Shown piece after piece: positions 1-41,344 of a DNA stretch of 64,000 nucleotides. Position 1 is the first letter of the stretch. Each line of letters opens with the position of its first letter. Below the pieces are notes generated by a model, which had not been told where the DNA came from, did no database searches, and saw nothing but the letters and a program-made list of their open reading frames with translations. A program made the position numbers and the translations under genes. This stretch comes from Psammoneis japonica (Eukaryota): contig QPGO01000069.1 in assembly GCA_008632985.1 (NCBI GenBank), positions 186,001 through 250,000 of the forward strand, in the 5' to 3' direction.

Positions 1-1682
1 CAAGGATGATTGCCTTGGAGGAATGGGGCAACGAATCCCAAATCTGTTGGTGGTCGGGAGGGAGACGTTTCCATTGGTCACCGGTGAGGCTGGGACCGCG
101 GGTGCAGGCAGCATTGGCCTGAAGGATGTCAACATCGCTGTCGATGTCATGGAACACATCATTGGACGGTTCCTCAGAGTGGACATCGTGTGCGTGTGTG
201 GCACGTCGGGGAGCTCGAGGTGTCGTCTTGGGTTGAAATGCACTGTCGCATTGAGCCGCCGCGGAGAGGAGCAAGCCACAACGTTGATCACATGTGAGGC
301 TCTTGCCACTCTGCGTGCGATGCTGATCAGCTTGGTTCTTGACAGCACGGAGTTCCTTGACAGGATGTGCGGCATTCTCGAGCATGACGCGCTTCTGTCC
401 TTCAGAGAAGTGGTCACTGGCCGGGATGAGTGCCTCATGCTTGCGCAACTGATCTTGCCAATGAAGGATGAACCCGTGGGTCGGACCTTTCCAAGCACCA
501 TCACCAAGACGTGCGGTGGCAAGGTGCATGAGCAAGGTGGAGGACTCGATGGATGCACGGGTGGAGGCGAGCGCATGCTCGGACAAGGCGCGGTGGACGG
601 TCTGGGTGTCAGAAGACCCCACATTTTTGCAAATGAGAGCCTTGCCCTTGTCGGTGAGAAGGATGCGTTCGAAGATGGCGAACATGCACTTTTGCTGTTC
701 AGCAAAGAGCAGTTTGTCTTCGGGGCTGGTCGGTTTGTACGACGAGTCGAGAGTGCACTCGACGTCTTGGGCACGGGCTTGTGCCACAAGTGAGGTGTGC
801 CAAGTGTGCCACTGACGGGCTCCAGTCCCAGGTGGGACTCCGTGTGACATTTGGCCCGCAGAATTCTGCGTGCGAGCTCCGTAGTGCGAGAATTCTGTTG
901 ATGGATGTGTTCATCTTCAACATCAAATAAACGGCCAAGTTTGTGGTGCAATTGTGCCTCTTGCCACTCGACTTTTTTGCAAATGCACCTGCCCCACACG
1001 ATTCTTAAGACATTGTAGAATCGCGCTGTAACAAAAAATGTCAAAAGTTGTTGGACGGATCGCTCAATGAGTGCACCGTAAAATGACAAAAAATGTCGAA
1101 AAAATCATGTAGAAATCTACGTGCGCGACATACGACGTGATCCAAAAAACTGTCGATGTCACAGTTCAGCAGTGCGAGGTCCCACCCAGACCTAGAATGC
1201 GTCCACTGCTTGTCAGATTTGAGAGCCGTGAAAGTGGTGGGGTCACGCTTGATGCCTCGCTTGAAGTCTCATGCCGGGTCGTGTGCCTTGGTCGGGTTGG
1301 TGACATGCGGAGGTGCGAGGGGCAAGCTGCCGACGGACACAGAAGACATGCAGTCGGGGCTGAGGCAGCAGGCAAGGAACTCCTCATGCATGAACAACAA
1401 GGAGTCATTGGCAACATCAAGACCTTCGTGTGCTTTGACAATGTGCAGACTGGTCAGAGCTGCTAACATGTTCTTACAACCGCGGGGCAAAGGGATCACA
1501 TTGGTGCCATCATCGCACTCAAGCGAGTCGATTTGTGACGGCATGAACATGAACAGTTCTTGGCGCGAGTCCGTGCCGTCGTGGGTCAAAGCCAAACAAA
1601 GAGGGCTCCCAGCACCTTGGGCAAGCACAGTTCCAACAACGTGCTCAAAACCATCGGTTTGTTGCTGACGAGTGAGAACCAT
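1..1682 (-). mobile_element. Decayed Ty1/copia (CoDi-type diatom) retrotransposon gag, interrupted by a MITE and running off the window's left edge
   Basis: Manual minus-strand translation gives MVLTRQQQ...DFKRGIKRDPTTFTALKSDKQW|HTWHTSLVAQARAQDV...FAEQQKCMFAIFERILLTDKGKALI...ARLGDGAWKGPTHGFILHWQDQLRKHE...FSEGQKRVMLENAAHPVKELRAVKNQADQ, which I recognise as CoDi-type Gag. There is an in-frame TGA at 1269-1271. The frame is restored by removing the MITE at 814-1203 plus one TSD. Confidence 0.85.
814..1203. mobile_element. MITE copy A (non-autonomous TIR element, GACG termini, 4-bp TSD CACT)
   Basis: Left end GACGGGCTCCAGTCCCAGGTGGGAC; right end reverse-complemented GACGCATTCTAGGTCTGGGTGGGAC. 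It is flanked by CACT (810-813) and CACT (1204-1207). Both ends align to the reverse complement of 61324-61725. Confidence 0.9.
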
Positions 1683-2331
1683 GGCAGACAAAAGTGGTGT
1701 CAGGACAAGCGATTCTTGTTGGGACGCGAAGGCAGACTTGAAACTTGGGTGAGAATGGACTTAACTTGAAGTGGACTTGACTTGAAATCTTGAACTACCT
1801 TAAAATCAGAAGTCGCCAGGCTGTGCTGTCCCGATCATTGTCAAGTGCTAAACTTCCCATCCGGTCCGTAGAGTTGTGCCGGCACGTGCGAACCCACAGC
1901 CAGCGGCGCTTTGGGTTGCTTGCAAGCGGAGTAGCGGGTTGTAAACCCCTGCAGGCAAGCTGACTGGAGGTGGACAAGACCCCCGAACCGTTCTCATTTT
2001 ATGTCGGTTGGATTTCTGATCAGGCTGGCCAGTTGACGCAGGTGTTGGGCGCTGTGGATGAACAAACAAACGCGGGAAAAACACCCTTGCCCCAACGCAG
2101 GCTGCAATCACGGCTGCTTGCTCTCACAGTCGTCCTCGTGGACCCAGTGGAACTGCAGAGCACCAGCAGTCCAGGGTAGATCAGGTGCAATGGACTCGGT
2201 GTGCTTGTAGAGTGGTGGCAAAGCCGCAGTCCAAAGAGTGGGCACAAGTTCTTGGCCGTGAAGATGTGTGTGCATGTGTGTCTTCAGCGACGAAGATCCT
2301 TGAACATGTGGGGTTCCTGACCGTTAACCAA

Positions 2332-2601
2332 TGAATGGGTGTGTCAAGGGATGAGGATAAAGGATGGACTTGGATGTGACCGTTGAGTGCATGTCTTCAG
2401 CGACAAAAGGCAGTGCGATCAATCCAGACATCCAGCGACAAGGAGATTTGAACGGTGACGTTAACTTCCTGCCCGATGCCTGGTGTTGAATGCGTGCAGA
2501 CTTGCCGATGCACGCAGAACACATGCGGAGATCCACGCAGAATTGAAGTGGCATCATCGGTAAATCAACGACGATGATGGCGGTTGCTCAATGGGTTGAC
2601 A
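2332..2601 (-). repeat. Putative 5' LTR of the CoDi element, followed by a PBS-like TGGTTAACGGTCAGG
   Basis: On the minus strand the segment starts TGTCAACCC and ends ...CCCATTCA, followed after 1 nt by TGGTTAACGG, upstream of the gag ATG. The second LTR is not in the window, so the boundaries are tentative. Confidence 0.45.
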
Positions 2602-3759
2602 ATGAGCAAGACTGTTAATCTGACAGAAATTGAAGGCAAATGGCAAGAATTCAAACAACAACTCCTTGCTGCTGTCTAAACAGCAGATGAGTCTCCGCTC
2701 AGAGACCGTCACAGGAGCCGAAAGACATGCAAGTCGGCACAATCGGGCTGCTGTTGTTGTTCTTGTGAGCCTTGCTGCCGGCGAGAAAATGTGGACACTG
2801 ATGGGACTCGCGCACATCCACGTGGAAGCAACACCAGGAAAGTGTTCGCAGATGGACACTAAAACACCACAAAACACGATGATCGTTGATGATGCTGCTG
2901 TTGTGCCAGTCTTACGATAATTTCCACTCATTTTTTGCATTGACATGATCACTCGTCTTATGGAGGACTTGCTTGCATCTTGGTTTGGTTGAAACAGAGG
3001 GCAAAACGTTGTTTCGCGAGGTGAGCACATTTGCCACTCGAACTCGTGACTCGATCATGTTTCTGCGAGATGATTTGATGTCGTGGACTCGATGCCTCTC
3101 TTCAACATTCGTTCATGCGTTTGGCATTTCTAATCTATCATTGGTGCTGTCACGTTGCTTTTGCCGTGATGTTGTTTCAGCAGGTTTGATTTTCGGATTT
3201 TGGCATGCCGTTTTGGGTTGCACGTGTCATCTGGAGTTGGGGGGCGGTCAAAAACGCATTGAGCATGCATCCAACACAATTGTTTTGGCCACGGATACAA
3301 CTCACAACGATCACATGCACATTGAATGAGGAATTGACGATTTTGTTGCGTTGACAACCGTTGTCTTGGAGCCGCTCTACCGACACATGAGTTTGTCACG
3401 TCATTGCGGCGCAAAAAGTGAGACTGAGTCGGATGAGTTGATGGCATGAATGATGATTTGCTTGAATGGCCATTGAAATGGCTTCACACGTTTGTTCAGA
3501 CTCGTGGGTGAGCACTGTGAATCACTCTGTTGATGTTCAACCGGAGTGACATTTTTGCATGCCTTTTTCATGTTGCTCAATTTCTGTTCTGCCTTGGTTG
3601 CCACGCAGCAGGCACCAAACAAGCGCCTCGGCGATTCAAGAACAATGTTCAAATGCACAAGAGCCTGCGTTTTCAACATGGCAGCATGTTGGTGAACGGC
3701 CTGGCTAAATGTGCAGCGTGAATTGCTGCTGCATTCCCGCAAATGGTGAGTTTTGGGAT

Positions 3760-6700
3760 TCACACATTGAGAAGTCCAAACGACTCGAAACCTGCACTTT
3801 CTGACACATTGTTGCTCTCCGCCATTGCGAGATCATTGGCAGCTTCTGCAAGACAGCAAACCATTGAAATCTTTTTTTCAGTTAGTGACTCCGAAGCATT
3901 GGAGTTCTGAAGATGTGTCAAGATTTCTGGAGACCAGATGAAAATGCCATCGTTGCCTTCTTTGGCAAGTGCTGCAACTGCTCCTGGTTTTTCCCTGTCA
4001 AAACCAAATGCAACAACTTGCTCTAGATTCTCAAAATGCCCTTTGCGCCCTGCTGTCAACTCTTTTGGGGCTTGCTTGCCAGGGTATGACGAGTGGAACT
4101 TGTTCCCCTGGTGCGACACAGCATGCAGTGACGCACCCTTCTTGTGATCGTTGTTCCGAACTCTGAAGTTTCGCGTCACACCGGAAACTTTCCCAGCACG
4201 AACGGCACGTTTTCCTCGATTCTTGTCTCCATGAACATGCACACCCTCCTGATGTTTGTTGCTTTCGTCTACAACAGGCATGGTGTCCAGGTTGAGGAGG
4301 GCAGTGTCGTCGTCAGCACAGTCTAGATCATCGATGACGTGCTTGGATGGGATCATGATGGAAGCCATCCGGACTAAGTTGTTGTGAAACCATTGCCAGA
4401 CCACGTGGTGACAACATCCATTGTAATCGTTCAAACGATTGCGCTTGTAACGTTCAAGACGCGACGACAATAAACCGGCCAGTTGGTTGCTCCGTTGCAT
4501 CATGTTGTCATCAGCAATGACGATGTCTTCAGCTGCTGTGACATGATTTGCAACCAGCTCACGCCATTTCACATTCTTCAAAACATGTGTAGCTTCAGGT
4601 GAGTTTTCGACTGGAGCACTTGGTGCATCTTCACTTTCAAGCGGAACCTCCTGTCTTTTGCATGTCACGTCGCGGTCACGCAACAACCAAGCGACTCTTG
4701 TCAGGTTTTCTTCCCCTGTCTTCGCATCTTCGAGCTTCCCCTTGTCAGGGAACTTGAAGGAGCAGGTCTTTTTAGCCGTCTCCCATTTTCGCACATGGAC
4801 AAATGCCTGTAGCCTTGGAGCCGTCATGGCATTGAAGTCGTCAAGACTCGCATTCGCAAGCCCTTCGCCGTTTCGCCCTCGGACGCGTGACANNNNNNNN
4901 NNNNNNNNNNNNNNNNNNNNNNNNNNNNNNNNNNNNNNNNNNNNNNNNNNNNNNNNNNNNNNNNNNNNNNNNNNNNNNNNNNNNNNNNNNNNNNNNNNNN
5001 NNNNNNNNNNNNNNNNNNNNNNNNNNNNNNNNNNNNNNNNNNNNNNNNNNNNNNNNNNNNNNNNNNNNNNNNNNNNNNNNNNNNNNNNNNNNNNNNNNNN
5101 NNNNNNNNNNNNNNNNNNNNNNNNNNNNNNNNNNNNNNNNNNNNNNNNNNNNNNNNNNNNNNNNNNNNNNNNNNNNNNNNNNNNNNNNNNNNNNNNNNNN
5201 NNNNNNNNNNNNNNNNNNNNNNNNNNNNNNNNNNNNNNNNNNNNNNNNNNNNNNNNNNNNNNNNNNNNNNNNNNNNNNNNNNNNNNNNNNNNNNNNNNNN
5301 NNNNNNNNNNNNNNNNNNNNNNNNNNNNNNNNNNNNNNNNNNNNNNNNNNNNNNNNNNNNNNNNNNNNNNNNNNNNNNNNNNNCCCTTGTCACGCCCGAG
5401 AGTGACTGGGCTTTCTTCGAGACACCGCAAGATTTCCGCCTTGTTGGGGTGGACAGTTGGGTCGAATGCCTCTGCTGTCAGCAAAGGTTGCAGTGACTCA
5501 ACTGCAGGAAAAACCTTGCTGAGATCACAACCCGCTTCAGATCCAGTGCGAGAAGGGTTGCTTTTGTTCTTGGCAAGTTTCTGTTGCAAATCGAGATTCT
5601 CAATTTCAGGATTGTTCGTGTGCGCCTTCATTTGACCCGCGTCGCCGTCGAACCACAGAAGAGATCGTAGAGTTTCAGGAACGGCTTGTCCCTGTGCCCA
5701 TTCATTGCTGATTTCTCTTTGAGCCTCAAGAAATGGTTGGAAAATGTGCCTTCGGTAGATGACCATTCGTTCGGACTCTCGGTCGGTGACATTGTTGCGC
5801 ATGAACAGGACGCAGCCGCATCCCGCATTGAGGTTTGTGTCTCCACCAGCACACAGACCTCGGACCCGAATCAGATGTGTGCCATCCGCATTGTTGCATT
5901 TGTCTGATGAGCAACCTTTGGGAAGCTCTCGATCTGTGAGTTTCAAGAAGCTAACCATCATGGGTGCCATCTGCCCACACGCGGAAAAGCAGTGCGTGTC
6001 TTTTGCTTGCATGCCTCGCATTGACTTGTCTTCCCCACTCTTGTGTTTTGCGTGAGTGCCGGCATCACAGTTTGAAGACGCAGAGACCAAACGCCACTCA
6101 CTTTTGTTGTTTTTTGTTCCCGCAAACACGCACGTCGTTGTGTCATCCAATCCCACAATGTGCGTGGGTTTAACAGGGTGCACCTCAACTCCCCATGCCT
6201 TCTCAACAAGTTGAAGAAAGAGCTTTGAACCCTCTCCAAGCTTTGGGAATGTGGCGTTTCGAAAATGTCTGTCGTGTCCGACAGCAAAGTGAGTTTGTCC
6301 GATGACGAGAGCCAGTGACATGGCTCCAATCAATGATTGCTCAGCTGTGCGTCGGGCTTCGGTCTTCTGCACGACACTGTCGGTGATGGACATTTTGGGA
6401 TTCGTCGCCGCGGCAAGAGTCCTGCATCGACTGACCGTTGTTCGGTGAACTGTGTGCTCATTGTCTGCTGCAAGGCCTTGATGGTTCATGTCATCCTGCT
6501 TCTTCCCATTTAACATTTTCTTGATGTCCTCTAACCTGACTGTTTGTCCTTTGCTCTCAACCACGTTTCCAGTTGCCTCAACGAGTTTGTTCTCAGTCAT
6601 GATTGGAACGCGACCCCTTGCTCCCCACGCCTCATTGATTGGTTTCCCTTCTCGAATTTTTCGCAGCACCTTGTGTGCACTCTTGTCACTGACATGTGGC

Positions 6701-7395
6701 ACACATTTCTTCTGTGTCATGTCATTGACAATTCCCGCTCACTCTTTTGCGTTCCTTCCTTGAGTTGTGTCACAAACTTCTTGTTTGGTGCACTCAAGCT
6801 GATCTTTTGGTTCAGGGTGCGTGAATGCTGTGGCATTTGACTTCTTCTTTTGAGTTGACTCATCTGAATTTTTCGTGTCCCCTTTTCGTTTTTTCGAGAG
6901 TTTGCGATCACCAGCAGGTGGCGTCTTGATGCGCAAGGCAAGTCGCTCCAGCTCAATGAGTTCATTGGCCTTTCTGGGAGCTGCTGGTGGTGGGATTTTT
7001 TCTTTGTCTTCCACGTTGTTGGGACTTGGCAGAGACGTTGGTTCAAGATTGGCGGTGCGCAAAGCACGTGATTGGGCAACTTTCTCCGAAGCCGCGAGCC
7101 TTCGACGCGCGTGCGGAACGCCCGGCATCTTGGATTCTTTTGCAACTGTTGCATTTGATTCAACAGCAGCTTGTTGAACAATGGAGAGTGTTTCACTAAC
7201 AACTTTCAGACAGTTGCTGGCCTTTTTCAAGTCACGTGCAGTGCTGTTTCTGTCGTCGAGAATTTGCCTGGTGTCTCTCAAAATGACTTGCTGTTGACGG
7301 GTGGCTTGTACGATGTTGGCATTACGAAGCTGAGTTTCAAGTGATTTGTCTTTGGCAGACCGTCTGATGGCAGCATCACCATCTGTTTTAGTCAC
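3760..7395 (-). mobile_element. Decayed DDE (pogo/DDE_1-like) transposase gene with a possible C-terminal GIY-YIG-like domain; spans the assembly gap
   Basis: ORF 3760-6720 has motifs resembling the DDE_1 triad context (IVGLDDTT ... CFSACGQMAPMMV ... RSLLWFDGD ... PSRTGSEAGCDL). The C-terminal part has EGVHVHGDKNRGKRAVRAGK...RNFRVRNNDH. The upstream ORF 6739-7395 may be the N-terminal part. The protein is depleted of Tyr and rich in Cys/His. Confidence 0.55.
4893..5383. other. Assembly gap (run of N)
   Basis: Directly visible run of N. Confidence 1.
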
Positions 7396-7912
7396 ATTGT
7401 TTGTTGTGGCAATGAGAGCAGCTTTTGCATCGATCCGAGATCGTTCTTTTTTTTTTCACGTGGTTTTGTAAGTTGTTTTCGGCGCGTGCTCTTGGATGAC
7501 TCGCACGGAGGTCAAACGCCAAAAATGACCTTTTTCAGTGTCCAGTTGTGCTCGGTGTCCATTCCCGCACGCCGGCAGCTTGTGGCTCGAAAGCAAACTG
7601 CATCGCGCGCGAACGCGTGGAACTGAAGCACACAAAACTGTGCGCGGCAAACCAAACAGCGCGTGACATTTCGCGTGCACCCAAATCCTGTTCAAATCCT
7701 GTCAAAGGTCAGTGGCCACAGCTGGCAATGGCAGGCAAAAGGTTGTCAAATGATGTTGCACTCCACGAGTTTTGGGCCCTGTGTTTCTGGTGCAAGAAAG
7801 CCAGTGGAGCACATGAACCACCGGCACCACATGCCATCTTGGTTGTTGTGTCATTGCTTTTGTCAGAACACCCAAGGAGTTGCATGCAGGACAGTTGGCA
7901 GAGTGTGTTGGC

Positions 7913-8475
7913 GACGTGTTCCAGCCGCACGTGAACCAAATCGTGCACAAAAACGACATTTGCGCGATTTTTGCGCGGTCCCTAACTTACGATCGAACTT
8001 TCACCACCAAAAGTATAGATTTATACAAATATAAATGTTTTGCAACACTAACAAGACTCGTGTGAGTGTTGCAATATCATTGTTATTGTGCTATCTGCTA
8101 TCTATGTTTTTCATTGCGTTAAAAGATTCGTAACACAACGGATGATTTTCGGCGAAAACATTGCCGTTATTTGGATGTTACCTAGACATATCTTTGTACG
8201 ATGCTACTTGGTAGGTTTTCTACCTACAAAAAATCTCAGTATAAATCTACTGACGTACAATCAGGATTGAGTCTAGGTACTGAGGAAGTTTATGATACAA
8301 ATCCCATGAGGATTTGAACACCCCTCAAAAAACTATTTAAATGTGCATACTCTAGAAGCCTATAAAAGTCAATCCGTCTAAGTATTTTTATTAAAATGCT
8401 GTATACACTAAAATATACATAAATTATATTCAAAATCCGATTGTCGTTTTGTGCGTCACCTGGATGGAACACGTC
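7913..8475. mobile_element. MITE copy C (GACGTGTTCCA TIR, 4-bp TSD TGGC), AT-rich interior
   Basis: Left end GACGTGTTCCAGCC...GCACAAAAACGACA; right end reverse-complemented GACGTGTTCCATCC...GCACAAAACGACA. It is flanked by TGGC (7909-7912) and TGGC (8476-8479). Confidence 0.85.
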
Positions 8476-11047
8476 TGGCAGTTCTTTTGGTTTAGATCAC
8501 AGCACCTGCTGGCTGCGGGTGTGATCTCTGGTCTTGGGACAGAAGCCCAGCTGCCCACCAGAAGACAGGAGACACCAACACCCAGGGTGATGATTCTTCA
8601 GACAGGCGCCAATTTGGAGGATGTCTCTCCAGCTTGCTGCCAGCTGAAGAATCTTGTGCAGAGAATTTGTGCCAAAAAAGCCTGTCGATTAGTGTGTTTG
8701 GGGGTTTTGGCCACATTTGGTGAATGCCAGATGGAGTTGTTTTTGTTGCACACAACAACACACTGGCAATGTCCCCAAATGTGCTGACAAGCAGTCTTTT
8801 TTCAGCCAGCAGCTGGCTGGAGAACTCCCCCAGATCAGTTGGCAGGTGACTGTCTTGCTGCTCTCTTGTGATGCCTCATGAGATGGAAGTCTCATTTGGC
8901 ACTCATGCCATTTTCTGCTGGCTCTTGTTGGGCTCTTCATGTGCTCTCCCCATTGCCAGGGTGGGTCACATGATGTCCACTTGAAAAGGAAGGAACCAGG
9001 TTCAAGAACATTGGGTGTGCTGGTCTTGCTGAACCACATCCCTCGTTGCTTTTCTTTTTTTGTTGCACCAACTGCAGGGCAACTCAGGCAAGATTCATGA
9101 TGGCAAGGTTGCAAGCCCCCAATGCCAGGCATGTCCTGCTTGGAATCTAATTAAGCCAAGACTCTGGGTGTTCAAAAGGGCCCCAAAAGTTAAGCCCAGT
9201 GGCATGCCGGAATGAAGGGTGCTTGGCAAACAAAGCATGGATTTGTTGAACTTGGTGACATGACAACTCAAGTGGTGACCCATGTGCTGACTTGTTTGAA
9301 GCACTTGAAGATTAAAACTGGGCAACAGAGTCAAATTCATGGCAAACCACACCACAGCATTGACAAGTTTTGCATCTGATGGCTTGTTGCTGGGGTCAAC
9401 AACCCCAGCTGTGCAACTCAAAACAAGCTCAGATGCTGCAAGTCAGCAGCCAAAACTGCTTTGTCAAGAAAAGCCAGGACACACATGCCCAAAACTTTGC
9501 AGCACTGATGAATCTCACTCAGCTGTCTCAGAACAGTCTTGTCCTTCTGGTTCAAAAAACACAACCAGGTTTTTTCAACTGGAGTTTGTTGCCAGTGCAG
9601 TTGCCATGGATGCACTGCATCTTGGGAGTTTGGCTCCAGTTGGATGCTCCACAGTCTGGCAAATGGATGGTCCCACCATGCAAGCACCTTTGCAGACTCT
9701 CCAGATAAAAAAATGAAAGCTGCAATTCTTTGTTGACCAGATGCAGACTCCAAACCAAAAAGCCAAAAGCTGCAATGCAGCCAGCTTGAGACAGGAGACA
9801 GATGAGTCATTTGTTTCCAACAAAGATTTGTTGGACACATGCTTTGTTGCATTGCACCACATCAGTTGTGAATCTTGGGTTGGACATTCACTTGCAACTT
9901 GAATCTTGCAATTAATTGTGACTGTGTGCACCATCTTTGCAAAGCATGCTTGTCAACTCTGGCGGAAGCTGCTCCAAGGACCTCTTCTGGAGCTGTGTCA
10001 AGTGGCCCAATTTCAAAAAGCCCAGCTCCAGCAATGAGATGAGGCCGACTGACAAGATTTTCTTCCAAATTAAGATGTCCTGGTGGATGTGCATGATCAT
10101 GTCCTCCATCCTGCTGCCTGGACTTCCACAATCAACTCTGACAATGCCAAAATCATTGCAGCCAGTGTGATGATGATTTCCATTGTGTTGTCCAGTGCTT
10201 TCCACAGCAGCAGCACCAGAGGCCCTCTTTGGTCAGATCCACTTTTGTGACAGCTTGGGTGTGATGATGCACATTGCCTCAGTCAGAGGCAGGTCCAAAG
10301 TTGTTTTCATCAGTTGTCAGCATGTGAAAAAATCAAGTTTTTGCACCAGCATGATCACGCAGAAACACCTGCGCATTTTGTCTCATTTTCATCATGGAGA
10401 TTAAAAGGGTGAAGAAAAACTCATGCAGTGACTTGGATTTTTTTGGTGAGTGTTGCATGATTTTCAGCAGATGGCTGAAATGACTGCAGCCAACATCACT
10501 TGCTTGATGTGTTGGGTGCTCTTGGTCTGCTGGCCAGTGATGCTCATCTGAACAGCAGCCTTGTCATCCAGGAGGAGAATTGCAGGGGACATTGTGAGAG
10601 CACTTTTTGGTGCTCCTGAGAGGCAGGTGAAGTTGCAGGCTAACATGCAGGGCACACGCAACATGCACAGCTCCAGCACAGGTGCCCACCAACTCAGCTT
10701 CAACAGTGGACATGGCAACAGAGTGCAGGAGCAGTCAAATTGACATCAGCCCTGCTGGCTTTCATCTGTGAACACCATGAATGCAGAATGGCTAAAGTTG
10801 CAAGCCTCACAATTCACAAACCCAGGGCTCTTAGACAGGGGTGGCAAAGAACTTGATTGTAACATCTTGATGCTTTCAGAGGAGGTGGCCAAAAAGGTGG
10901 ACAAGGGTGTCAAAGTCAGGGTTGCTGCAAGCCTTGGCAAGAAGCTTGCACAGGAAAGGTGATCCACAAGTCACTGCACTGGTGCTTCACAGGTGAAGCA
11001 GAGCATCAAGCAGATGGAGGACATTGGAGGTTCAAAGTGGTGTGCTG

Positions 11048-11561
11048 GCTCTGGTGTTGCTGTTTGCTTCATCAGCGATGATGCTCCCAAGGGTGACTGC
11101 CAGGAGAGAGGTGAAGAAGAGGAGTGGAGCCATGCCCAAGATGTTCTTGGCTGCTGCCTCCTTTCACAGCAGCACCATCAACTTCAACTCCTGGCTTTTT
11201 TAAAATTCAGCATGCTTGTTGCTTTGGCGCACAGAGAGCTCAGCACCACAAATGGCACCCCTGCTCTTTGTTTGAGGAAGAGTTTGGATGAACAGCCAAG
11301 AGTGCTGCAACCATTGCCTCCATCTTTGGCTGGATGAACCTTTTCACTCATGGACTTGGAGGGTTGTTGCTTCTGACAAACTCAGTGCCAAGGTGGGGGT
11401 GCATGGCTGTTTGCTTGTCCACACCATCTTCCTTGCCTGCAAGCAAGCAATGATGCTCATCTTTGGCAACAATGCCAGTTCCCCTGGACTTGCCATCTTT
11501 GTCATGATTTTGTTTTCTCATGACTGCAGTGCCGTTCCTTGTGTTGACCCCCTGTCAACTG
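11048..11561 (+). pseudogene. Degenerate internal fragment of an NRT2 nitrate transporter gene
   Basis: Aligns by eye to 19073-19588 of the intact NRT2 (e.g. CCATTGCCTCCATCTTTGGCTGGATGAACCTTTTC and CACACCATCTTCCTTGCCTGC are identical). It has frameshifts and an internal deletion. Confidence 0.92.
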
Positions 11562-11683
11562 CCCCCACCTTCTCAAGCCTTGTCCTTGTCCTTGCACTCA
11601 CCCCACTTTGCCAAGAGCTGTGCCAACACTCCCCACCTTGTTCCAAGTCTGCCGCCTCTTCCTGCCTCAATGACAACCATGCC
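11461..11683 (+). repeat. ~220-bp direct repeat, copy 1 (NRT2 fragment fused to non-NRT2 sequence)
   Basis: Near-identical to 14777-14997. Confidence 0.9.
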
Positions 11684-14600
11684 TCCCCCCCCACACACAC
11701 ATTCCACGCCAAACCCTAACCCCATTTTTCACACATGGTTGATCTGTTCTTTTTAATCTTTGGCAGGTGTTCACAACACACCATTGAGAATGCCAATGCC
11801 CACTTTTTCTCCACTGGAGTTTTGGACCAAAGATGTGTGTGCTTCGCGTGCATTGGCACTTTCAACAGTCACATCTGAGCTGCAATGGCAATGACCATTA
11901 AAATGGCTGATCTCAATCTTTTTGGCTCACGAGAAAACTTGCCAACCACACTGATGAAGCAAAAGTGAAAGCTTGCATTGTCAAGCTTTGCAGGTTTGGC
12001 AAGACTGATCCAAAGTCTTGTCAGTGCCAAAGGTGCTCTGTGCATTCGAGAACCCCAATGACAGTGTACAACCAAACAATGATGACAAGTGCCAGTGCTT
12101 CCAATCAAATCATGCCAACAAGGAACAACAAAGCCACAGCGTCACATGCCGTGACTTTTGCTGAACCCAGCTCAACTGCAGCTGCAGCTGAAAAGCACCC
12201 ACCAAAGGCATCCAAGCAACAAAAAAATTGACAAACTCGAACCATGCCAGGAACTGATTGAGAGGCAGCAAACAGGACTTGGGGACACCTTTGAGACCTT
12301 GGCGACTCAAATGATTGTGCAACCAACCCAGGTGCAACTGAGGGAGACAAGCGTGCAAGCCTTCATTGGTGGTCAAGACCCTCCATTTGTCCCCTGCAGC
12401 TCAAGACTCAATGTTGAACTCAAGCACAGCAACAAGCTTAATGACAATGCTGAAGCAGCTGAGCTTGTGAGTGAATTCAAAGATTTGGCATCCGATTTCC
12501 AATGAAAAGGAACCAAACTCATGCACAAGATGGCAGAACAAGAGCTCGAATGTGCAAAAGCTGAAAGATTTGCTGCATTCTTCAACTCGTGCATCAACCT
12601 CTTTGAATGCCATGTGTTCTGTTGTGTCACATGCAGAAAAGGAGAAACCAGGCATTCATGCAGGCACCTGGGAGCGCTCTGCCTGTTGAAACATGCCAAG
12701 AAGTGTGTTGCTGACATGTTCCACTTGACACGCCTGTGAGTCAAGCAGGATGGTCATCACTGATGAGATCATCTTGCAAATGAACTTGGCAACAGAGGAC
12801 AATCCTGCCGACACCCAAGGCGACACGACAGAAAACCCATGTCACCTTGCGGATGGCAAGACCAAGATCTACAAACAAGTGGTCATGTGCCTTCAATGCA
12901 AAAACACTTTTGAGGAAGTCACGATGACACTGCAAAACAAAATCAATTGCAAGAACGAGCTTTCCTGAGCAAATGCCCAAGTCGCAGCCAGATGGAACGC
13001 ACGGAACAAAAAAGCCGCAGCAGAAGCAACATCAGCTGCACTGGAAGATGAGCCAGCAGCAAGCCCAGACATTCTAAAACAGCTCATGGCCAAACAAATT
13101 GAGCTCAAAGTGGCTGGCACAGCTGAACAAGCAGCCAAAATGCTTGAACAGCAACAGTTGCAAAAGAAATGAAAAAACTGAATGGGCAACCAGAAAGCCC
13201 CACCAGCAAAAAACAACGCCACAACAAAGGCAAGAAAAGGGCCACCACAGAAAAAAAACAAAAAACAGGAAACAAGCCCCAGTCCAAAGCCACCCAGAAC
13301 CAAGGAACAGCAAAAGGCAGTCACGGTGCACAGTGCACAGGCAGGCAAAAAGGCTCCAAAAACAAGATGAGACATGGGCAGCTAAACAGGCATGATGCCT
13401 CACCACCAAGGAGACAATCAAAACTGCCAACCGTCAAGCCAATAATTTTTGCCAGAGGATCTGTGGGTTCACACCAAACCCAAATAAAACCCAGTGGCAG
13501 AATGCAGTCAATGCCCTTGGTGACATTTCTGCAGTGCAATGCTTCAGCCAGCCACAAACAACCTTGCCTTCCACAACCCATGCACTGCCCTCATGCCACC
13601 TCCTGGACTCGTTGCATTGCTTGGACTCAGCCACAAGTTCTGTGTCCAACAACCAAAGCCTCCAGCACCCCACAACAGGCCTGGAATTGAGCAACTCTGT
13701 TGCTCAATTTGTCTCTGTCAGCTCATCAACAACACAAACAACCTTCCCAAAACCAACTGCATCCCCGGCTTGCATGGAATGGGCCCCACCAAAAATTAAG
13801 GACAGAAACCTGGAACTGCAGATGATGGACTTCATGAACCGCACCAACAAACTCTGCCACAAAACGCCCAAGGCACAATTTGTCGCCACACCAATGCCAA
13901 CTCCTCCACTCACCTAAAAGAGGACAACCAGTTTGTTGTCTGTGTGAGCGACAAAAAACAGGGACCAGTCATCATTAAAATGCAACCCATGTGAAATGAG
14001 CCCTTCAAGACCACTTGCTCAACTAACACAGCCACCAACGGCTGTCAATGCAGGAGAAAAACGAACTCCTGCAAGACACCAAACAACAGCTCATGGATGC
14101 GCACAATGAAGCCAAGTCAATGTCAAGCTCTGCCAAGCAAACACATTTCAAACGCAGCTTCAATCTGCCGCACTGCATCCCGCAATTTCATGTCATGATC
14201 AAGGTCCAGAAATCCCCATGGAAAACAAGACCCATCATCAGTTGTGTCAGAAGCTTTAACAAGATTTTCTCAAATTTGTCAGACAAGAAAATGAAAGAGC
14301 TCCTTGCTTTTTCCCACTCCTGCATCTGCGATTCTTGCCAAGTGCAAGGATCTGTGAGCATTGGAAAGCCCACCCAAGGACGCCAAGCTCTTCATGCTTG
14401 ATGCCGTCAGCATGCTTTAAAACATTGACACAAACCATGCATTGGAAGTCTTCAAGAACTGGTTTTCTGCCTGTTCTGACAAAATGCCAGCAGATTTCCC
14501 ATGCAGTTTTTTCTTTCAGCCCTCTCAATCATCATGACATGGAACATTCTCCAGTTTGACGACACTTTTTGACTGCAAACCTGTGGAACTGCTGTGGGCA

Positions 14601-14777
14601 CTGGCACAGCATGCATGTGTGCAACACTGCACAAGGCCCTTCATGAACGCCAAGTGCTGCAAACCCACTTCACCACCAACCTGCAGTGCTGTGGCCAATT
14701 CATCAATGACATCTTGGGGATGTGGGCCGGAAACTCTGACTCAACATGGACAGAATTCAAAGCAGAAATGAACAACT
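11562..14777 (+). mobile_element. Decayed, 3'-truncated Penelope-like retroelement (upstream ORF plus reverse transcriptase)
   Basis: RT motifs across frameshifts at ~13.9-14.77 kb: IPQFHVMIKVQKSPWKTRPIISC, KLFMLDAVSML*NIDT, NILQFDDTF*LQTCGTAVGT, LQCCGQFINDILGMW (Penelope-type PKVHK..RPIIS, DxxSMYTNI, QxxGTAMG, RFIDD). No GIY-YIG domain is seen before the sequence switches to the direct repeat. Confidence 0.8.
11938..12003 (+). ncRNA. Type I hammerhead ribozyme (mutated) in the 5' part of the Penelope-like element
   Basis: CTTGCCAACCACA-CTGATGA-A-GC-AAAA-GT-GAAA-GCTTG-CATTGT-CAAGC-TT-TGCAGGTTTGGCAAG. It has the core CUGAUGA and GAAA, stem III GCTTG/CAAGC, NUH = CUU, outer stem I CTTGCCAA/TTGGCAAG and a minimal stem II. 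Confidence 0.75.
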
Positions 14778-14997
14778 CTTTGGCAATGCCAGTTCCCCTG
14801 AACTTGCCATCTTCATCATGATTTTGTTTTCTCATGACTGCAGTGCTGTCCCTTGTGTTGACCCCCTGTCAACTGCCCCCACCTTCTCAAGCCTTGTCCT
14901 TGTCCTTGCACTCACCCCACTTTGCCAAGAGCTGTGCAAACACTCCCCACCTTGTTCCAAGTCTGCCACCTCTTCCTGCCTCAATGACAACCATGCC
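14777..14997 (+). repeat. ~220-bp direct repeat, copy 2
   Basis: Near-identical to 11461-11683. Confidence 0.9.
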
Positions 14998-17149
14998 CCA
15001 TGCCCCCCCCCTTCCGTCATTCCATGGTCCCTAGAGAGCCTCAATTCTCTGGGCTCTCTTCTTGGAATTGTCCTCAACCACTGCAAAAATTGAGGATGGA
15101 TCTGAGCAGGCTGAGCATGGACATTTTCCCACATGTGCAGCATGCCACATTGTTGCTGTGACATCAACTGTCATCACACACCAAACATGGCATCTGTTGG
15201 CCATGAGCATTGGCTTGGTGGCACTGATGATGCCAACTTGGTTGGCCTTGATGATGACTGGGGGACTGTGAAGATGCAGCACATGGTGGCATGTCTCTCT
15301 CTCTCTCTCTCTGTTCAGAAATGGGCTGCTGCTGCTGCTGTTGCATCTGCTTTAGCAAAAAGAACAAGAGGAAGCAAGATTTGGCACCAGTGCAAAACTT
15401 GCACCAGCAACATTTGGCAGCAGCAAAAAACTTGTGCTGAACAATGATGCTGGACAATGGCGCCAATTGTTGTGGCTTCCCTCTCGTCACAACTCATTCA
15501 AGCAAAATTCAGCAGCAGCACAAAACTTGCACTGAACACAAAAGCAAACTCTTGCAACTTCTCAATTGGCTGTCACAAGTCATTCAACAAAGCCTTGGTT
15601 GGCTGTTCATTGTTTTTGGAGCCAGAGCACCACAGCTGCCTTTTTCTTTGCCTTCTCCATTCTAAAAAAAGCAGAGGCAACCATGCCTTGTTGGCAGTGA
15701 ATTTGGTTTTTGGCTTGTTGTGTCCACCACAATTTTGTTGGTTGTTTCCCAAGTGCTTGTGAGTTTTTTGTTTGTGTCTTGGCTCACCTTCACAAAATGA
15801 AGACACTTTCCCTCCTTGACAAGTTGAGCTTTCTTTTTCTTGTCAGCATTTTTTCATGCAGACTGTGTTGGAGGAACCCCAAAGTGTGTCAGTGAGTTTG
15901 TCCTTTTTCTGGAGCTGACTGCATTTTGCAAAAGTTTCTGCCAGATGCATTGAGAGCTGAGAGCAGTCCACAGCAGTTGCACTGCTGTCAAGATTGCCAT
16001 GACAGAATGGGCACTTGTTTGCATGTCCATCCTTGCTTCAGTGCATGGGTGCTGCTTCCGCTTCTCCAAAAAATTCTTTTAAGTTGACAGCGCCAGCACT
16101 GCCTCTGAAAAATGAGACCATGTCCCTCATGAAGTTCATTCAAACTGCATTGCCTCCCATGCATTGACACAACTTTGTTGGAAAGCTGAGTCAGGCTGCA
16201 GAGCCAGTGCAGTTGAAAAGATTTTTACAGAGGCAGCAGCTGTGCCACTTTGCAGGATGCCTTCACCAACAATGTCCAGTCTTGGCGTGTTTGCTCAAGG
16301 CTCAATGGGAGCTTTTGAGAGCCACCATGACAAGACTTTTGTTTTTTTTGTTGTGTCACAGCCCCCACATCAGTTGATGATGTCATGCACATGGCACAGC
16401 TGACAACAGCCAATGCATGCTCAATTTGTCAGAGTTGTTGTCATTGATTCTTGACATGCCTGGTGTGTTGCATTTTTTTGTTTGTTGCACTGTCATGCAT
16501 TTTGGCACATGAGCAAGTTTTTCCCAAGGTTTGGGGAATGAAAACCTGTGAGAATTGTTGCCAGAGTCTGTTGGATGCACTGCACAAAATTTGAACAATG
16601 GCGAACAAACAATGTGGTGCACAGAACAGATGATGGTTCCAGAGCAGTGCTTCAGCACTGTGTCATTGCATCACAGTGCACTGTCAGGGCCCACAAGCTG
16701 TCAGGGAGCTTCTTGTCAAACAACAGCACATGATTGCTCTCTTTTGCATTGACCAAATCTTGTTTTGATGGTCCTTGTCAGCCACATCCTGTCTGCTGCT
16801 CTTTGCTGGCTCTGCTTGCATTTTAGCTTCAGACTCTTTTCTTTCTAAGTGGTTTTGTGCCAGCTTCAACAAAACCGCTTGGGCCTGGCTTGGCAACGTG
16901 TTGGCCAACAACATTGGCCCAATTTCTGCAAAAACTGGTGTGCTTTTGGCATGAACAGAGCATGAGCAGCACAGGGGGCAATTTGATTTTGATGTTTTTT
17001 GGCACATCCATTGGATTGCAGCCAGCACATGAGTGGCACTGCTGTCATCAGTTGCCACATTGTGGTGGAATGCCAACTCATCACTTTTCCTTTGCATGCC
17101 ATGTGTGAGTTGTCAGCAAAGAAGGCAGCTTGTCAGGAAAGGAAGGGTC

Positions 17150-17990
17150 TGCCTTGCTGTCCCCCAACCCTCAACCTTTCCCAACAACCCTGACTTGTGC
17201 TGCCTCTCTCTCAGCCTCTCTTGGCAGTGCTGGCTGCTGCGACCCCCCCCCCCCTGCCATGGCCGCTTGCTCCCTTCTCACTTCCCTTGCCGGCTCTCTC
17301 CAATTTGCTGAACAAGGGGTCTCCTTGGCTTGGCAGGTGACTGACACTTCCACCTGCCTCCCAGCTGATCTGCTGCTCTCTCCTCCAGGTCTAAACTGTG
17401 CTCCCCACCTGCCTCCAGTCTCCACCCCAATTTTTTCTTCCTTGTGCCTGCCCTTTTCCAAGTTGAATCTCCTGACTTTTCTTTTTCCCTCTGCCCTCCT
17501 TTGCCACTCCAACTGCGTGGCCTTTGCCAGTCACCCACCTTGACATGTCCACACCTTTGCCACCACCAGCACAGTGCTCTTCCCCTGCGCACCTGCAGCA
17601 CCAACCTGGCCTCCAGCTGGCCCTCCCTTCTCTCCCTCCCTCTTGCCAGTGTTCAACGGCTCTCCTCCATCATCACTGCCACCAACAGATCTAGCCTCTT
17701 CCTCCCCCCCCTTCACTCTTGACCATCACTTGGGTGTTGCAGGGCACCATCATTTCCACACCCTCCTTTTGGGTCACTCTCGAGGCGGTGCTTCATCCGC
17801 CCCACCCCCGCCTCCCACAGCCTCTCCAGCCAACTTTTTTCCAATTCTCATGCTCGTTCTTTTTCAGCCTGCTGATCTTCTCTCCTTTCACCAATCAACC
17901 TCGTTGTCCAGGTCAACATCACCTGGACAAACCGCAGCCCCCTGATCATTTTGGCTCTCCATTGCTCATCCACTCACCCATTTCACGCCC
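17150..17990. other. Pyrimidine-rich low-complexity tract at the edge of the repeat block
   Basis: Visibly C/T-dominated on the + strand; no credible protein. Confidence 0.5.
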
Positions 17991-18308
17991 ATGACACGCG
18001 TGAGCGAGCGACAAGACGATGAGGTGGCACTTGCAACGCCGGCATGCACGGACTCTCTACCTACAGCCAGTAGGGCCTACAGTGCTGTACGCTACGGTAC
18101 GATGCGAAAGCGGACGATTGACTGACGTATTTTCTCAGTGGCAAACCTCCGGAACTTCAACGGGTTCTGCCGCCACCGCGAACGAACACGTCTTTCAACT
18201 GCCAACCGTTCAACTTTTCAAATTCAGTTCTTCTTTCAGATCGTCTCACAATTTTCTAACGCCTCACTTGCCCCACTGTTCACACGTTGAGCAACAAGAC
18301 AAGCAATC

Positions 18309-19872
18309 ATGTCCGAAACAAATAATACCGAAATCGATAACGGCGAAGTAAGTCAAAGCGGTGATGTGGTGTGCCACTATTGTTGTGTCGTTATTCGCCT
18401 TGTGGCTCACGAATCACGATGTCGCATTTTCGACGCAGTGGAAGGAAATCAAAAAGTACGAGACGTACTCGCTCGCAGTTGATCCCGATCAAGATGACAA
18501 GGCTACCGAGATCAAGCTATGCAATTTCTCTCGCCCGCACATGCGTGCGTTCCACTGCTCGTGGTGGGGTTTCTTCATTGCCTTTTTCATTTGGTTCGCC
18601 ATTGCTCCTCTGCTCTCTGAGATCAAGAAAACTCTCGATTTGACCAAGCAAGAAGTGTGGACTTCTTCCATTGTAGGTGTCGGAGGAACTATCTTTATGC
18701 GCTTCATCCTTGGACCTGGTTGCGATAAGTGGGGAGCTCGCATTCTGTTTACCGCAGTCTTGTGCATTGCCTCCATCCCGACGGCCCTGACCGGAACTGT
18801 CAACTCTGCCACCGGCCTCGCCATCCTTCGTCTTTTCATTGGTATTGCTGGTGGATCCTTTGTCATGTGCCAGTACTGGTCCAGCCGTATGTTTACCAAG
18901 GAGGTAGCAGGAACTGCAAATGCCCTTGTCGGTGGGTGGGGTAACCTCGGTGGCGGTGTGACTCAGCTTGTTATGGGATCTGCTCTCTTTCCTCTCTTCA
19001 AGGTTTTCTTCGATGGCGATGCCGAAAAGGCCTGGCGTACCGTCTCCGTCGTCCCTGCCGTCGTTGCCTTCAGCTCTGGTGTTGCCATTTACTTTATCAG
19101 TGACGACGCACCCAAGGGTAACTACCACGAGATGAAGAGGAACGGAACCATGCCTGAGATTTCTGCTGCTGCCTCCTTCCGCAGTGGTGCTATCAATTTC
19201 AACACCTGGCTTCTTTTCATTCAGTACGCCTGCTGCTTCGGTGTGGAACTCACCATGAACAACGCTACCGCCCTTTACTTCAAGGAAGAGTTCGGCCAGA
19301 GTACCGAGAGTGCCGCCGCCATTGCCTCCATCTTTGGCTGGATGAACCTTTTCGCCCGTGGTCTCGGAGGATTTGCCTCTGATAAATTCAATGCCAAGAT
19401 GGGAATGCGCGGCCGTCTCCTCATCCACACCATCTTCCTTGCCTGCGAGGGAGCAATGGTGCTCATCTTTGCCAACACTGGATCCCTTGGACTTGCCATT
19501 TTCATCATGATTGTCTTCTCCATCTTTGTGCAAGCCGCCGAAGGTTCAACCTACGGTATTGTCCCCTACGTTGACCCTCCGTCCACTGGATCCATTGCTG
19601 GCATCGTCGGTGCCGGTGGTAACTGTGGTGCTGTCGGTTTCGGTATGGGCTTCCGCGAGCTCAACTACAAGGACGCCTTCCTTCTCATGGGATTCGTCAT
19701 TCTTGGATCTTGCGTCCTCTCCGTCTTTGTCAGGATCAAGGGACATGCTGGTCTTATCTTTGGACAGGACGACCCCGAAATCACCAAGGCTGCTGCCAAC
19801 ACTCTTTCGGTTCCTGAACCGGATGCGGAAGCCATGGAGGATGTCAACGTCGAAGAAGAAGAAGAAGAGTAA
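18309..19872 (+). CDS. NRT2: High-affinity nitrate transporter (NRT2/NNP family, MFS); exon 1 18309-18347, exon 2 18439-19872
   Basis: FSRPHMRAFHCSWWGFF, GGSFVMCQYWSSRMF, ANALVGGWGNLGGG, FGVELTMNN and GIVGAGGNCGAV motifs; GT-AG intron after MSETNNTEIDNGE. Confidence 0.97.
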
Positions 19873-39885: not shown

Positions 39886-41344
39886 GTATGAACTTCTCGC
39901 GTTCGCGTGTAAATTCAGCTGTCTTCACTGGCTCAGCTATTCACAGACTTACTGGTAGTACAAAAGCGCTACCATTTGATGCTCTTAGAGGCCTTACATG
40001 CATACTTCGTAACAAGTAACAGACTGCCGATCGATTGATTGTCGATTGGCGAATTTGGGCGAATGGCCATTTTTGGAATTTTGCAATGCGCATCAAGACG
40101 ACTGACCGACTGACTCTATCAATCAACCAGCAGGCAAGACGACTGACGTTACACTTCAATTTGTAGAGCACAATCAACCACCTGCTGCTGCCAGGTGTGA
40201 TGACTGATTTTGCACACGCCCACTTAGACAGTGAAGGGTGGTGCGTGCTGGTTGATGTGATGTGCAGCAGTGAGTGAAGCAAAGCCCCTCCCTGATGCAT
40301 CGCCTTCCTCGTCCACTTGATCTGCGATCATGTCATTCCTTCCCCCTTTGAGTGACACACATGCTGCCAATCATTCAAGAACTTGACGATTGCCAGTTGA
40401 TGATGCCATGTGGACTGGGGCATGGCCAAAAGTCATTTGATCCAATGCCTGCCCCCTTTGGCTCCTGCATGTCATCTTGAGCCTGTCCAGCAGAAGCAGT
40501 GTTCATCCTGGAGCTGCGCCCAATCCTCAGCAACACAAACCTGCCTTTCCAGGAGCCTGTCCCAGCCTGTGTGAAACTCTGAGAAAACACTGGCTGTCAC
40601 AGAGTTGGGAGCTGAGAAGCATGTCTGCCAGCTCTTGCAAAGTCCAGTTGTTTTGCCAAGCATGAAGGCATTTGTGAATGGCTCTCAAGAGACCACAGGC
40701 TGCTGAGTCATCTTCATCCATCCACCAGGCCAGCAGCTTGTGAATGAGCTTGTCCCATCTGTTTGTCACCTTGAGATGGGAAAAGATGTGTGTCATGCAT
40801 CCTTGTTCTCCGGCTTGCAATGTGGGCACCTGCTGTGGTTTTGTTGCTTCCAGCGCAGCAGCCACTTCTTGACACTGCACATTTTGATGGTGTGGTTGGC
40901 TGGCCAGCCAGCGATGTCTGGTGCTGATGCCAGGCCATGAGGCCACCCTGTTAACTGCATTTTAGTTGATTCAACAGAGCCCTCCATTGGCAAACTAACA
41001 TTTCTGATGCACTCAGAAATGGGCCAGTCTTCTTCCATGCACCTGAGTCCATGCAGTCATTCTGGCAGTTTGGTGAAAATTTTTTGGCTTGCCACCACAC
41101 ATGCACCACCCACGTTCAGCCCTCAACAGCAAATTGTGCTAGAGAAGCCAGGCCTTGTGCCTCATGTTGCCATCAGGCTTCAGCAAGATTGTCCATTTTG
41201 ACATTTGTTCAAGCCCAATGGTCAAGGTTGCAGCATGGTCTGGATTCTTGGTGTCCTTTGATCCACCAAAAAATTCTAAGTTGGGTTGCCAGTTTGTGCT
41301 TCTTGGCAGCTTTGAGGATGTTGCAGTCATTTGGTTGGCAGAGG

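Follow-up and report, generated by a model that had tools for sequence, protein, structure and literature searches.

Blocks of transposon and junk DNA in a 64-kb window of the genome of the diatom Psammoneis japonica (assembly GCA_008632985.1, contig QPGO01000069.1, positions 186,001 to 250,000 of the forward strand) have lost the dinucleotide TpA, and several of them have lost CpG as well. This pattern is probably the result of two dinucleotide-specific transition processes that operate on such blocks, a TpA hypermutation and a CpG decay. The TpA conversion acts on DNA, on both strands and after integration; it is specific for TpA and confined to silenced or junk blocks. Its separation from CpG decay is well supported in both directions: TpA was lost where CpG was kept, and in related elements CpG was lost where TpA was kept.

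The observed/expected (o/e) ratios of TpA and CpG were profiled in 1-kb windows across the 64 kb. In the genic parts they were 0.4–0.9 for TpA and 0.7–1.2 for CpG. At positions 1–7500, the TpA ratio was only 0.05–0.29, whereas the CpG ratio was 0.73–1.02. At 8.5–17.5 kb and 40.5–53.5 kb, both ratios were low (TpA 0.00–0.13, CpG 0.02–0.34), and CpA and TpG reached 1.7–2.0. The original prediction, made from the letters of the sequence, had described positions 1–7700 as poor in TA yet rich in CG and the regions 8.5–17.6 kb and 40.4–53.6 kb as lacking both, and the profiles bear out both descriptions. The density of CG in 1–7700 is at gene level (54.2/kb versus 54.4/kb in the genic region 18051–40150), whereas TA is five times rarer (8.5/kb versus 41.0/kb). 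Three motifs had been named as common in this region; CGCG (4.3 versus 2.0/kb) and GTCG (5.3 versus 3.5/kb) are indeed enriched relative to the same genic region, but CCGG is not (1.8 versus 2.6/kb).

TA and CG were each segmented with a two-state hidden Markov model (HMM) that used 50-bp bins and rates set by the analysts. Depletion of TA was assigned to the segments 1–1000, 1201–1750, 2001–7950, 8501–18050, 40251–54300, and 60351–61900, and depletion of CG to 8501–12800, 13051–17750, 40151–53900, and 60301–61250. Jointly, 23,550 bp were depleted of both dinucleotides, 9,100 bp of TA only, and 31,200 bp of neither. The reverse state, in which CpG is gone and TpA is retained, covered only 150 bp of the window. 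Accordingly, 99.4% of the CG-depleted bins were TA-depleted too, a value that was reached by 8 of 1279 circular shifts. The 31.2 kb that retained both are genic DNA with TpA ratios of 0.52–0.59, and every TA-depleted segment is a transposon or junk block. Altogether, the TpA ratio was 0.05–0.15 over 32.6 kb, about half of the window, versus 0.59 in genes.

Four blocks are distinguished in the following. Block A (1–7950) is depleted of TA and retains CG, and it contains the two TA-retaining islets 1001–1200 and 1751–2000. Its segment 2001–7950 has 40 TA (o/e 0.13) and 279 CG (o/e 0.90). An assembly gap of 491 N is located at 4893–5383 within this block, and the element structure is incomplete there. 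Block B (8501–17750) is depleted of both dinucleotides, with TA ratios of 0.06–0.07 and CG ratios of 0.12–0.13. It harbors an islet of 250 bp (12801–13050) in which 10 CG are retained (o/e 0.69) and TA is gone (1 TA). Block C (40251–53900) is also depleted of both (TpA 0.05, CpG 0.11), and its TG and CA ratios are 1.64 and 2.04. Block D (60351–61900) is composed of a part that lacks both (60351–61250, CG o/e 0.25) and a part that lacks only TA (61251–61900, CG o/e 0.62). A mass balance was calculated relative to the genic background. In the doubly depleted DNA, 1971 TA and CG are missing and 1904 TG and CA are gained, and in the DNA depleted of TA only, 316 are missing and 392 are gained. Because both processes end in TG or CA, doubly affected DNA is nearly free of CG and TA and contains CA and TG at almost twice the expectation.

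The direction of the change could be read from a piece of a host gene inside block B. An intact gene for the nitrate/nitrite transporter NRT2 (MFS_1), which encodes 503 aa, is located at 18361–19872 on the plus strand and was used as the reference without mutations. It is most similar to NRT2 proteins of diatoms, with 76–81% identity, namely those from Phaeodactylum (76%), Amphora, Ditylum, Seminavis, Nitzschia, and Pseudo-nitzschia. A frameshifted pseudogene fragment, which corresponds to aa 239–410, lies at 11050–11563 on the same strand within block B. None of the 9 TA sites of the intact gene was kept in the fragment; five had become CA, three TG, and one was changed otherwise, so that TA had turned into TG or CA in 8 of 9 cases. 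Likewise, none of the 19 CG sites was kept (11 TG, 6 CA, 2 other), and the 17 changes to TG or CA affected both strands, as is typical for CpG decay driven by 5-methylcytosine (5mC). Sites with TG and CA in the intact gene were kept at 30 of 38 and 23 of 32 positions, respectively. In total, the fragment differs from the gene by 71 transitions and 23 transversions, in addition to indels, and inspection by eye revealed three replacements of Tyr by Cys. A second partial NRT2 copy is present in block B at 14776–14877. The two copies share conversions, Tyr-to-Cys changes, and a deletion of 8 aa, and they differ by two changes of CG to TG or CA. The shared Tyr-to-Cys changes and the shared deletion indicate that a piece of the host gene was captured, converted, and then duplicated within block B, and the two differences indicate that CpG decay continued after most of the conversion.

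Two retrotransposon gag genes served as further references. In block A, the N-terminal region of a Copia-type (CoDi-like) gag-pol protein is encoded on the minus strand in two parts, which were mapped by tblastn. The first part, at 1209–1682, corresponds to aa 1–171 of its relatives and contains one in-frame TGA, and the second part, at 2–817, corresponds to aa 196–481 and extends past the left end of the window. The region has 65 homologues (best E value 7e-77, about 50% identity), many of which are about 1850 aa long and contain PF07727 (RVT_2). It had been named a CoDi gag, which is right in kind, as it is a gag of the Copia type that matches RVT_2 polyproteins. The narrower assignment to CoDi is a candidate one, as these groups are defined by the reverse transcriptase domain (PMC2806351), which is not part of the window. 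The second gag gene is situated in block C at 46766–47822 on the plus strand. It consists of the open reading frame (ORF) 46766–47497, for which 143 homologues were found (best E value 2e-51), and a zf-CCHC knuckle in an overlapping frame (47409–47822).

In both genes, the residues at conserved Tyr columns were determined. For the Copia gag, 11 columns have Tyr in at least 60% of 59 homologues, and the window copy has one Tyr, four Cys, four His, one Phe, and one Arg at these positions. Other conserved residues were largely retained, namely Leu at 24 of 27 columns, Gly at all 8, and Arg at 9 of 13. At 10 conserved columns of the block C gag (45 homologues), Tyr was not kept at all, and five Cys, three His, one Phe, and one Asn were found. 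Of the 21 conserved Tyr columns in the two genes, 16 now have Cys (nine) or His (seven). The Cys codons (TAY to TGY) arise by an A-to-G change in the sense strand, and the His codons (TAY to CAY) arise by the same change in the opposite strand. Their near-equal numbers therefore indicate that the two DNA strands were hit about equally, and because TG and CA products both occur within single genes, the target was integrated double-stranded DNA. Taken together, the comparisons with the NRT2 reference and the two gag references indicate that the loss of TA is a mutation of known direction and not a matter of base composition. CpG decay was observed in place, and on both strands, in a tandem array of about 55 units of 9 bp with a super-period of 18 bp, which is located inside block C (42149–42688). 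At one dinucleotide position of 35 clean units, CA is present 23 times, TG 8 times, and CG twice.

The surviving TA are not distributed at random. TA before A is spared, TTAA is immune, and the order of the 3′ bases is T>C>G>>A. This was quantified with a half-site model, in which each strand has a rate that depends only on the nucleotide following the A, and this is equivalent to the nucleotide preceding the T on the opposite strand. For DNA depleted of both dinucleotides, the half-site rates were 0.00 for A, 1.03 for G, 2.57 for C, and 3.02 for T, and the fit was far better than with a flat rate (likelihood ratio (LR) 196, p 3e-42; Pearson X2 2.2 over 10 context classes). For DNA depleted of TA only, they were 0.31, 0.69, 1.16, and 2.03 (LR 29, p 2e-6; X2 2.8, again over 10 context classes). 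TTAA was untouched, with 29 sites observed and 28 expected, and its density was 1.06–1.65/kb in blocks versus 1.27/kb in genes. No TATA was present in the three block regions for which it was counted, versus 35 in the genic region 18051–40150. The gain of TG in DNA depleted of TA only fell mostly on TGC and TGT (+181), with a smaller share in TGA and TGG (+73).

A process of this kind is known from one preprint of 2026, in which integrated viral DNA was studied in Bigelowiella natans, a rhizarian alga of the chlorarachniophytes (Mettrop et al., 2026, bioRxiv 10.64898/2026.01.13.699255). In mutation-accumulation lines, TpA was changed de novo to TpG or CpA at about 6e-7 per site per generation, and of the 231 mutations found in two viral inserts, 230 changed A:T to G:C, every one of these at TpA; an ADAT2-like deaminase was proposed. 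The change is alike in B. natans and the window: it leads exclusively from TpA to TpG or CpA, occurs in both orientations, raises the GC content, hits foreign or selfish DNA, and spares ordinary genes. In the window, A:T to G:C changes were confined to TpA, both products were present, and the intact NRT2 gene was unconverted, whereas its fragment in block B was converted. The blocks also resemble clusters in B. natans that are poor in TpA, rich in CpA and TpG, and enriched for reverse-transcriptase and DDE domains. There are, however, several differences. B. natans is a rhizarian in which de novo events were seen, whereas the window comes from a diatom, a stramenopile, and contains only a long-term footprint. 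The TpA ratio falls to 0.05 in the window, compared with 0.45 in a giant-virus insert of B. natans, and the targets are transposons and a gene fragment here and integrated viral DNA there. The main text of the preprint does not mention CpG, diatoms, or the flanking context, although its supplements may hold contexts, and no literature report was found on TpA hypermutation in diatoms or on a connection of it with CpG decay. New here are the saturated transposon footprint, the two-way decoupling from CpG decay, the nesting of CpG loss within TpA loss, and the flank rule.

Fungal repeat-induced point mutation (RIP) was also considered as a known system. It resembles the process in the window in being a hypermutation of repeats in the manner of a genome defence, with transitions in a dinucleotide context, after which elements escape similarity search (PMC2621366). 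However, RIP was rejected. It changes C:G to T:A mainly at CpA, creates TpA and stop codons, and lowers the GC content, whereas in the window TpA is destroyed (o/e down to 0.05), CpA and TpG climb to 1.6–2.0, TAA and TAG vanish, and the GC content goes up.

We propose that TpA hypermutation would convert TA to TG or CA, i.e., A:T to G:C, on integrated double-stranded DNA. Retrotransposons, an insertion with terminal inverted repeats (TIRs), and a host-gene fragment would be targeted alike, and neighboring genes would be spared. The two halves of a TA site would be acted upon independently, at a rate that is highest when T or C follows the A, lower with G, and close to zero with A. Chemically, adenines in DNA would most likely be converted to inosine by a deaminase that is recruited to silenced or foreign chromatin, as has been suggested for B. 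natans. The second process, the change of CpG to TpG or CpA, would be that expected from the deamination of 5mC on silenced diatom transposons, and CpG methylation of diatom long terminal repeat elements has been reported (PMC2806351). TpA conversion would start on the same silenced DNA and run roughly an order of magnitude faster; it appears saturated on every block, and CpG decay appears only within such blocks. The elements would lose Tyr codons, TATA-like motifs, and TAA and TAG stop codons, without the creation of new stop codons, and the conserved Tyr of reverse-transcriptase motifs, which lie outside the window, would be lost too. A more far-reaching version can be offered only tentatively, as it is rather unlikely to hold in full. 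In this version, a chromatin-directed editor of double-stranded DNA would recognize the palindromic TpA with T-A-[not A] as half-site and provide a first-line, irreversible defence against transposons that acts before 5mC and more widely. TpA might then carry a symmetric, heritable base modification on A or T and serve, next to CpG, as another epigenetic dinucleotide whose mutational trace is the TG and CA left behind, and the matching spectrum in a rhizarian would suggest that the system is old or has been acquired repeatedly in marine protists.

The adenine need not be the base that is altered. Alternatively, the thymine of TpA could be modified on both strands, to 5-hydroxymethyluracil (5hmU) or a J-like base by a dioxygenase of the TET/JBP type, which would serve as a silencing mark on repeats, and subsequent mispairing or faulty repair would change T to C. 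The palindromic nature of TpA and the nearly equal hits on both strands fit such a modification, and the flank rule would apply just as well to a T that follows any base except T. However, 5hmU:A pairs are only weakly mutagenic, which counts against this explanation. Moreover, this spectrum is known experimentally from B. natans alone, and there the discussion has centered on the deamination of adenine. In dinoflagellates, 5hmU is found mostly in repeats, aids transposon silencing, overlaps with 5mC, and replaces thymine preferentially in TA and TC (PMC11572971), and thus a non-cytosine mark on repeats with a preference for the T in TA does exist. It is an epigenetic mark of alveolates, though, and the relevant passages of that article describe no mutational footprint. 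On the whole, thymine modification is a fair alternative but seems improbable as the source of the TpA loss.

It would also be conceivable that only one process exists. The loss of TpA would then follow from cytosine methylation or from CpG decay, or it would be part of a general drift of all pyrimidine-purine steps to TG and CA in methylated heterochromatin. The inclusion of nearly all CG-depleted bins in TA-depleted DNA, the shared end dinucleotides, and a weak positive correlation of the two ratios among related elements are in favor of this. On the other hand, 9.1 kb of the window are depleted of TA and have CpG at gene level, and TA does not hold a cytosine. The 5mC-driven CpG decay known from vertebrates and plants, in which a palindromic step is lost to TG and CA on both strands, is matched by blocks B, C, and part of D, but it cannot touch TA.

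Related elements from elsewhere were informative in this respect. From metagenome contigs, 58 relatives of the Copia gag were collected, and nine conserved Tyr positions could be scored in 57 of these loci and in the window copy. The TpA ratios of the 58 loci were 0.27–0.90 (median 0.66), and the CpG ratios were 0.02–1.16. In 15 of the 58 loci, the CpG ratio was below 0.3 (down to 0.02), and yet TpA was retained at 0.44–0.78, and so were the conserved Tyr. Only two copies were found to be converted, namely the window copy (Tyr at 1 of 9 positions, three Cys, three His) and locus L039 (Tyr at 0 of 8, four Cys, three His). The other 56 of the 57 scored loci had retained at least half of their Tyr and had at most one Cys or His each, however low their CpG was; in L051, with a CpG ratio of 0.02, Tyr was kept at 8 of 8 positions. 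The low-CpG relatives with intact TpA and Tyr therefore show that CpG decay does not bring about TpA loss. A common process is thus very improbable, and the original claim that TpA conversion is separate and not a by-product of CpG decay is upheld by these relatives together with the 9.1 kb in the window.

The element in L039 (1301–2426) has TpA ratios of 0.08–0.16 and CpG ratios of 0.26–0.75, and its flanks (1–1000) are normal, with 0.5–0.6 and 1.0–1.3, respectively. TpA conversion appears to be lineage-restricted, and its occurrence in at least one source other than this organism is indicated by L039. Locus L003, with a low TpA ratio of 0.27, was considered as a second independent case, but it was rejected because Tyr is retained at 7 of 9 conserved positions. 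At L003 1001–3516, the TpA ratio is 0.04–0.20. This locus may be a functional element that has been purged of dispensable TA, or it may represent an early stage of conversion.

The relative speed of the two losses was deduced from elements in different states. An insertion of about 390 bp with imperfect TIRs, which resembles a miniature inverted-repeat transposable element (MITE), is located at 818–1208 and splits the Copia gag, and it is therefore younger than the gag. A second copy is present on the minus strand in block D (61324–61725). Only the ends of the two copies can be aligned, with 91% and 80% identity, and within them TA in the block A copy corresponds to TG in the block D copy, while CG is kept. 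The TpA and CpG ratios form a graded series: 0.37 and 1.05 in the insertion at 818–1208, 0.16 and 0.76 in the block D copy, 0.03–0.08 and 0.75–0.85 in the Copia gag, 0.04 and 0.25 in the left part of block D, and 0.03 and 0.14 in the block C gag. The lowest degree of conversion is seen in the youngest of these elements, the insertion at 818–1208. When region 2001–7950 was treated as an exponential decay from the background, about 1.5 units of TA loss were obtained per 0.07 units of CG loss, and this arithmetic suggests a ratio of the two rates of the order of 20. TpA conversion is thus likely to be faster than CpG decay, and the graded series points to an order of events in which TA is lost first and CG afterwards.

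At the right edges of three blocks, CG recovers 300–650 bp before TA. In the right fringe of block B (17751–18050), TA was found 0 times versus 12 expected and CG 16 times versus 2 expected at the core rate. In the right fringe of block C (53901–54300), which adjoins a gene with a Ysc84 domain (54212–54865), the numbers were 2 versus 16 for TA and 22 versus 2.7 for CG. The same order was found at 61251–61900, in a fourth block that the original prediction had not named. P values for these fringes are post hoc, since the segments were chosen by the HMM itself. At the left edges of three blocks, the boundaries of TA and CG coincide within 100 bp. This includes the edge at about 40.2 kb, where the HMM boundary of CG lies slightly outside that of TA, at most 100 bp apart. 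An earlier return of CG had been predicted for 17.65–18.05 kb, 53.6–54.3 kb, and 40.17–40.33 kb; it was found at the first two, and at the third the two boundaries are too close for an order to be read.

Between blocks A and B lies a sharp-edged AT-rich island of 550 bp (7951–8500) with a GC content of 0.35, a TpA ratio of 0.90, and a CpG ratio of 1.23. The island may be a remnant of the original intergenic sequence that separates two insertions, or it may itself have been inserted recently; with its low GC content, it resembles the low-GC cores of diatom centromeres. In the genes flanking the blocks, no gradient of TpA or CpG was detected past the fringes in 1-kb windows. Obligatory spreading is disfavored by the island with its normal TA content and by the coincident left edges. 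It had been proposed that TpA conversion is faster than CpG decay or spreads further. The nesting of the two losses and the graded series fit the first alternative, whereas the island and the left edges argue against the second.

Several points weigh against the interpretation as two separate processes, of which the faster one is a TpA-specific deamination of adenine. First, the sequence would fit an alteration of the A and of the paired T alike. Second, the 18 products of Tyr codons give no clear sign of the flank rule: His is preceded by a purine in four, C in three, and T in two cases, and Cys by a purine in six, C in one, and T in two cases. The rule would not predict the two His that follow T, although the number is small. 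Third, the higher speed of TpA conversion was deduced from the nesting and a series of five points in one window, and the same picture may arise if cytosine methylation is aimed at a subset of the TpA-targeted DNA. Fourth, the TpA and CpG ratios of the 58 related loci are correlated, albeit weakly (Spearman +0.44, p 5e-4), and the TpA ratio had a median of 0.57 where CpG was below 0.3 (15 loci) and of 0.68 where CpG was at least 0.8 (17 loci). The correlation is in part arithmetic, because the decay of CG adds T and A, but independence is nevertheless imperfect. Fifth, the expected counts and contexts of TA were derived from the genic background of the window and not from the ancestral elements, and the sequence was taken as assembled.

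Editing of RNA by an ADAR-like enzyme, or of cDNA during retrotransposition, would mean that the elements had already been mutated when they arrived. The change of A to G after a 5′ U or T is an ADAR-like neighbor preference (10.64898/2026.01.13.699255), and some block edges are indeed sharp. ADAR and APOBEC enzymes of animals also resemble the process in the window in that they are deaminases that hypermutate selfish or viral nucleic acids with a preference for certain nearest neighbors. However, their substrates are RNA or single-stranded cDNA, they leave strand-asymmetric tracks, and APOBEC changes C and not A. In the window, changes of A to G (Cys) and of T to C (His) in the sense strand occur within the same gag genes, the host-gene fragment and the TIR element were converted as well, and the younger insertion in the Copia element is less converted than its host. 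The 3′ neighbor preference of ADAR is also the opposite of the order T>C>G>>A found here. With both strands affected and this order of 3′ bases, editing of the ADAR type was discarded, and an arrival of the elements in the mutated state is hardly credible.

Just as little can be said for an artefact of base-calling or assembly at modified bases or for an intrinsic avoidance of TA, such as selection against UpA in RNA: L003 illustrates that TA can be avoided without damage to the protein, but the replacement of conserved Tyr in the two gag genes is protein-damaging, the NRT2 fragment has the indels and transversions of old decayed DNA, L039 has the same signature and normal flanks in an independent metagenome assembly, which therefore argues against an artefact, and errors at modified bases would not divide cleanly into TG and CA.

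Among the other features of the window, a long open frame at 5386–6720 on the minus strand had been taken for a DDE transposase, which could not be substantiated. No Pfam match was obtained even at E values up to 10, no homologue was found among proteins of near lengths, and a single-sequence AlphaFold model was unusable (pLDDT 34.7). An embedding similarity to DDE_1 of 0.91, with 162 shared features, provides a lead only, and the frame is possibly a decayed pogo/Tc5-like DDE_1 transposase. A frame of 986 aa on the minus strand (3760–6720), the longest among the ORFs listed, spans the gap of N. In 34 kb of blocks (1–18000, 40100–54300, and 60000–62200), 199 ORFs of at least 80 aa were found over six frames, because TAA and TAG stop codons are nearly absent. 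When 92 block ORFs were compared with Pfam, none reached the cut-off, and in a comparison of 83 block ORFs, one was above it (zf-CCHC); the runs were made with stop-free ORFs, and frameshifted domains may escape them. A comparison of the window with itself yielded 20 repeat pairs, which are too few for the dating of copies. The regions at 18–40 kb and 54–60 kb contain ordinary genes, with products including an LCM methyltransferase, an ornithine-decarboxylase-like protein, a glyoxalase, a metallo-beta-lactamase, and proteins with Ysc84, F-box, and SET domains.

The finding has consequences for the annotation and the dating of diatom DNA. DNA without TAA and TAG yields long false ORFs, which is a hazard for annotation, and TpA hypermutation would account for much of the diatom repeat DNA that does not match anything. 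If TA goes first and CG later, the two losses would represent a two-clock record for ordering insertions. The flank rule, with TAA spared and TTAA immune, is a fingerprint that can be compared with candidate enzymes and with the de novo mutations of B. natans, and the base-editing field would also be interested in a natural enzyme with A:T to G:C activity on duplex DNA. Should TpA hypermutation be at work in diatoms and not only in a chlorarachniophyte, it would be more than a peculiarity of a single alga, and major lineages of phytoplankton would possess a second means of genome defence that does not involve cytosine.

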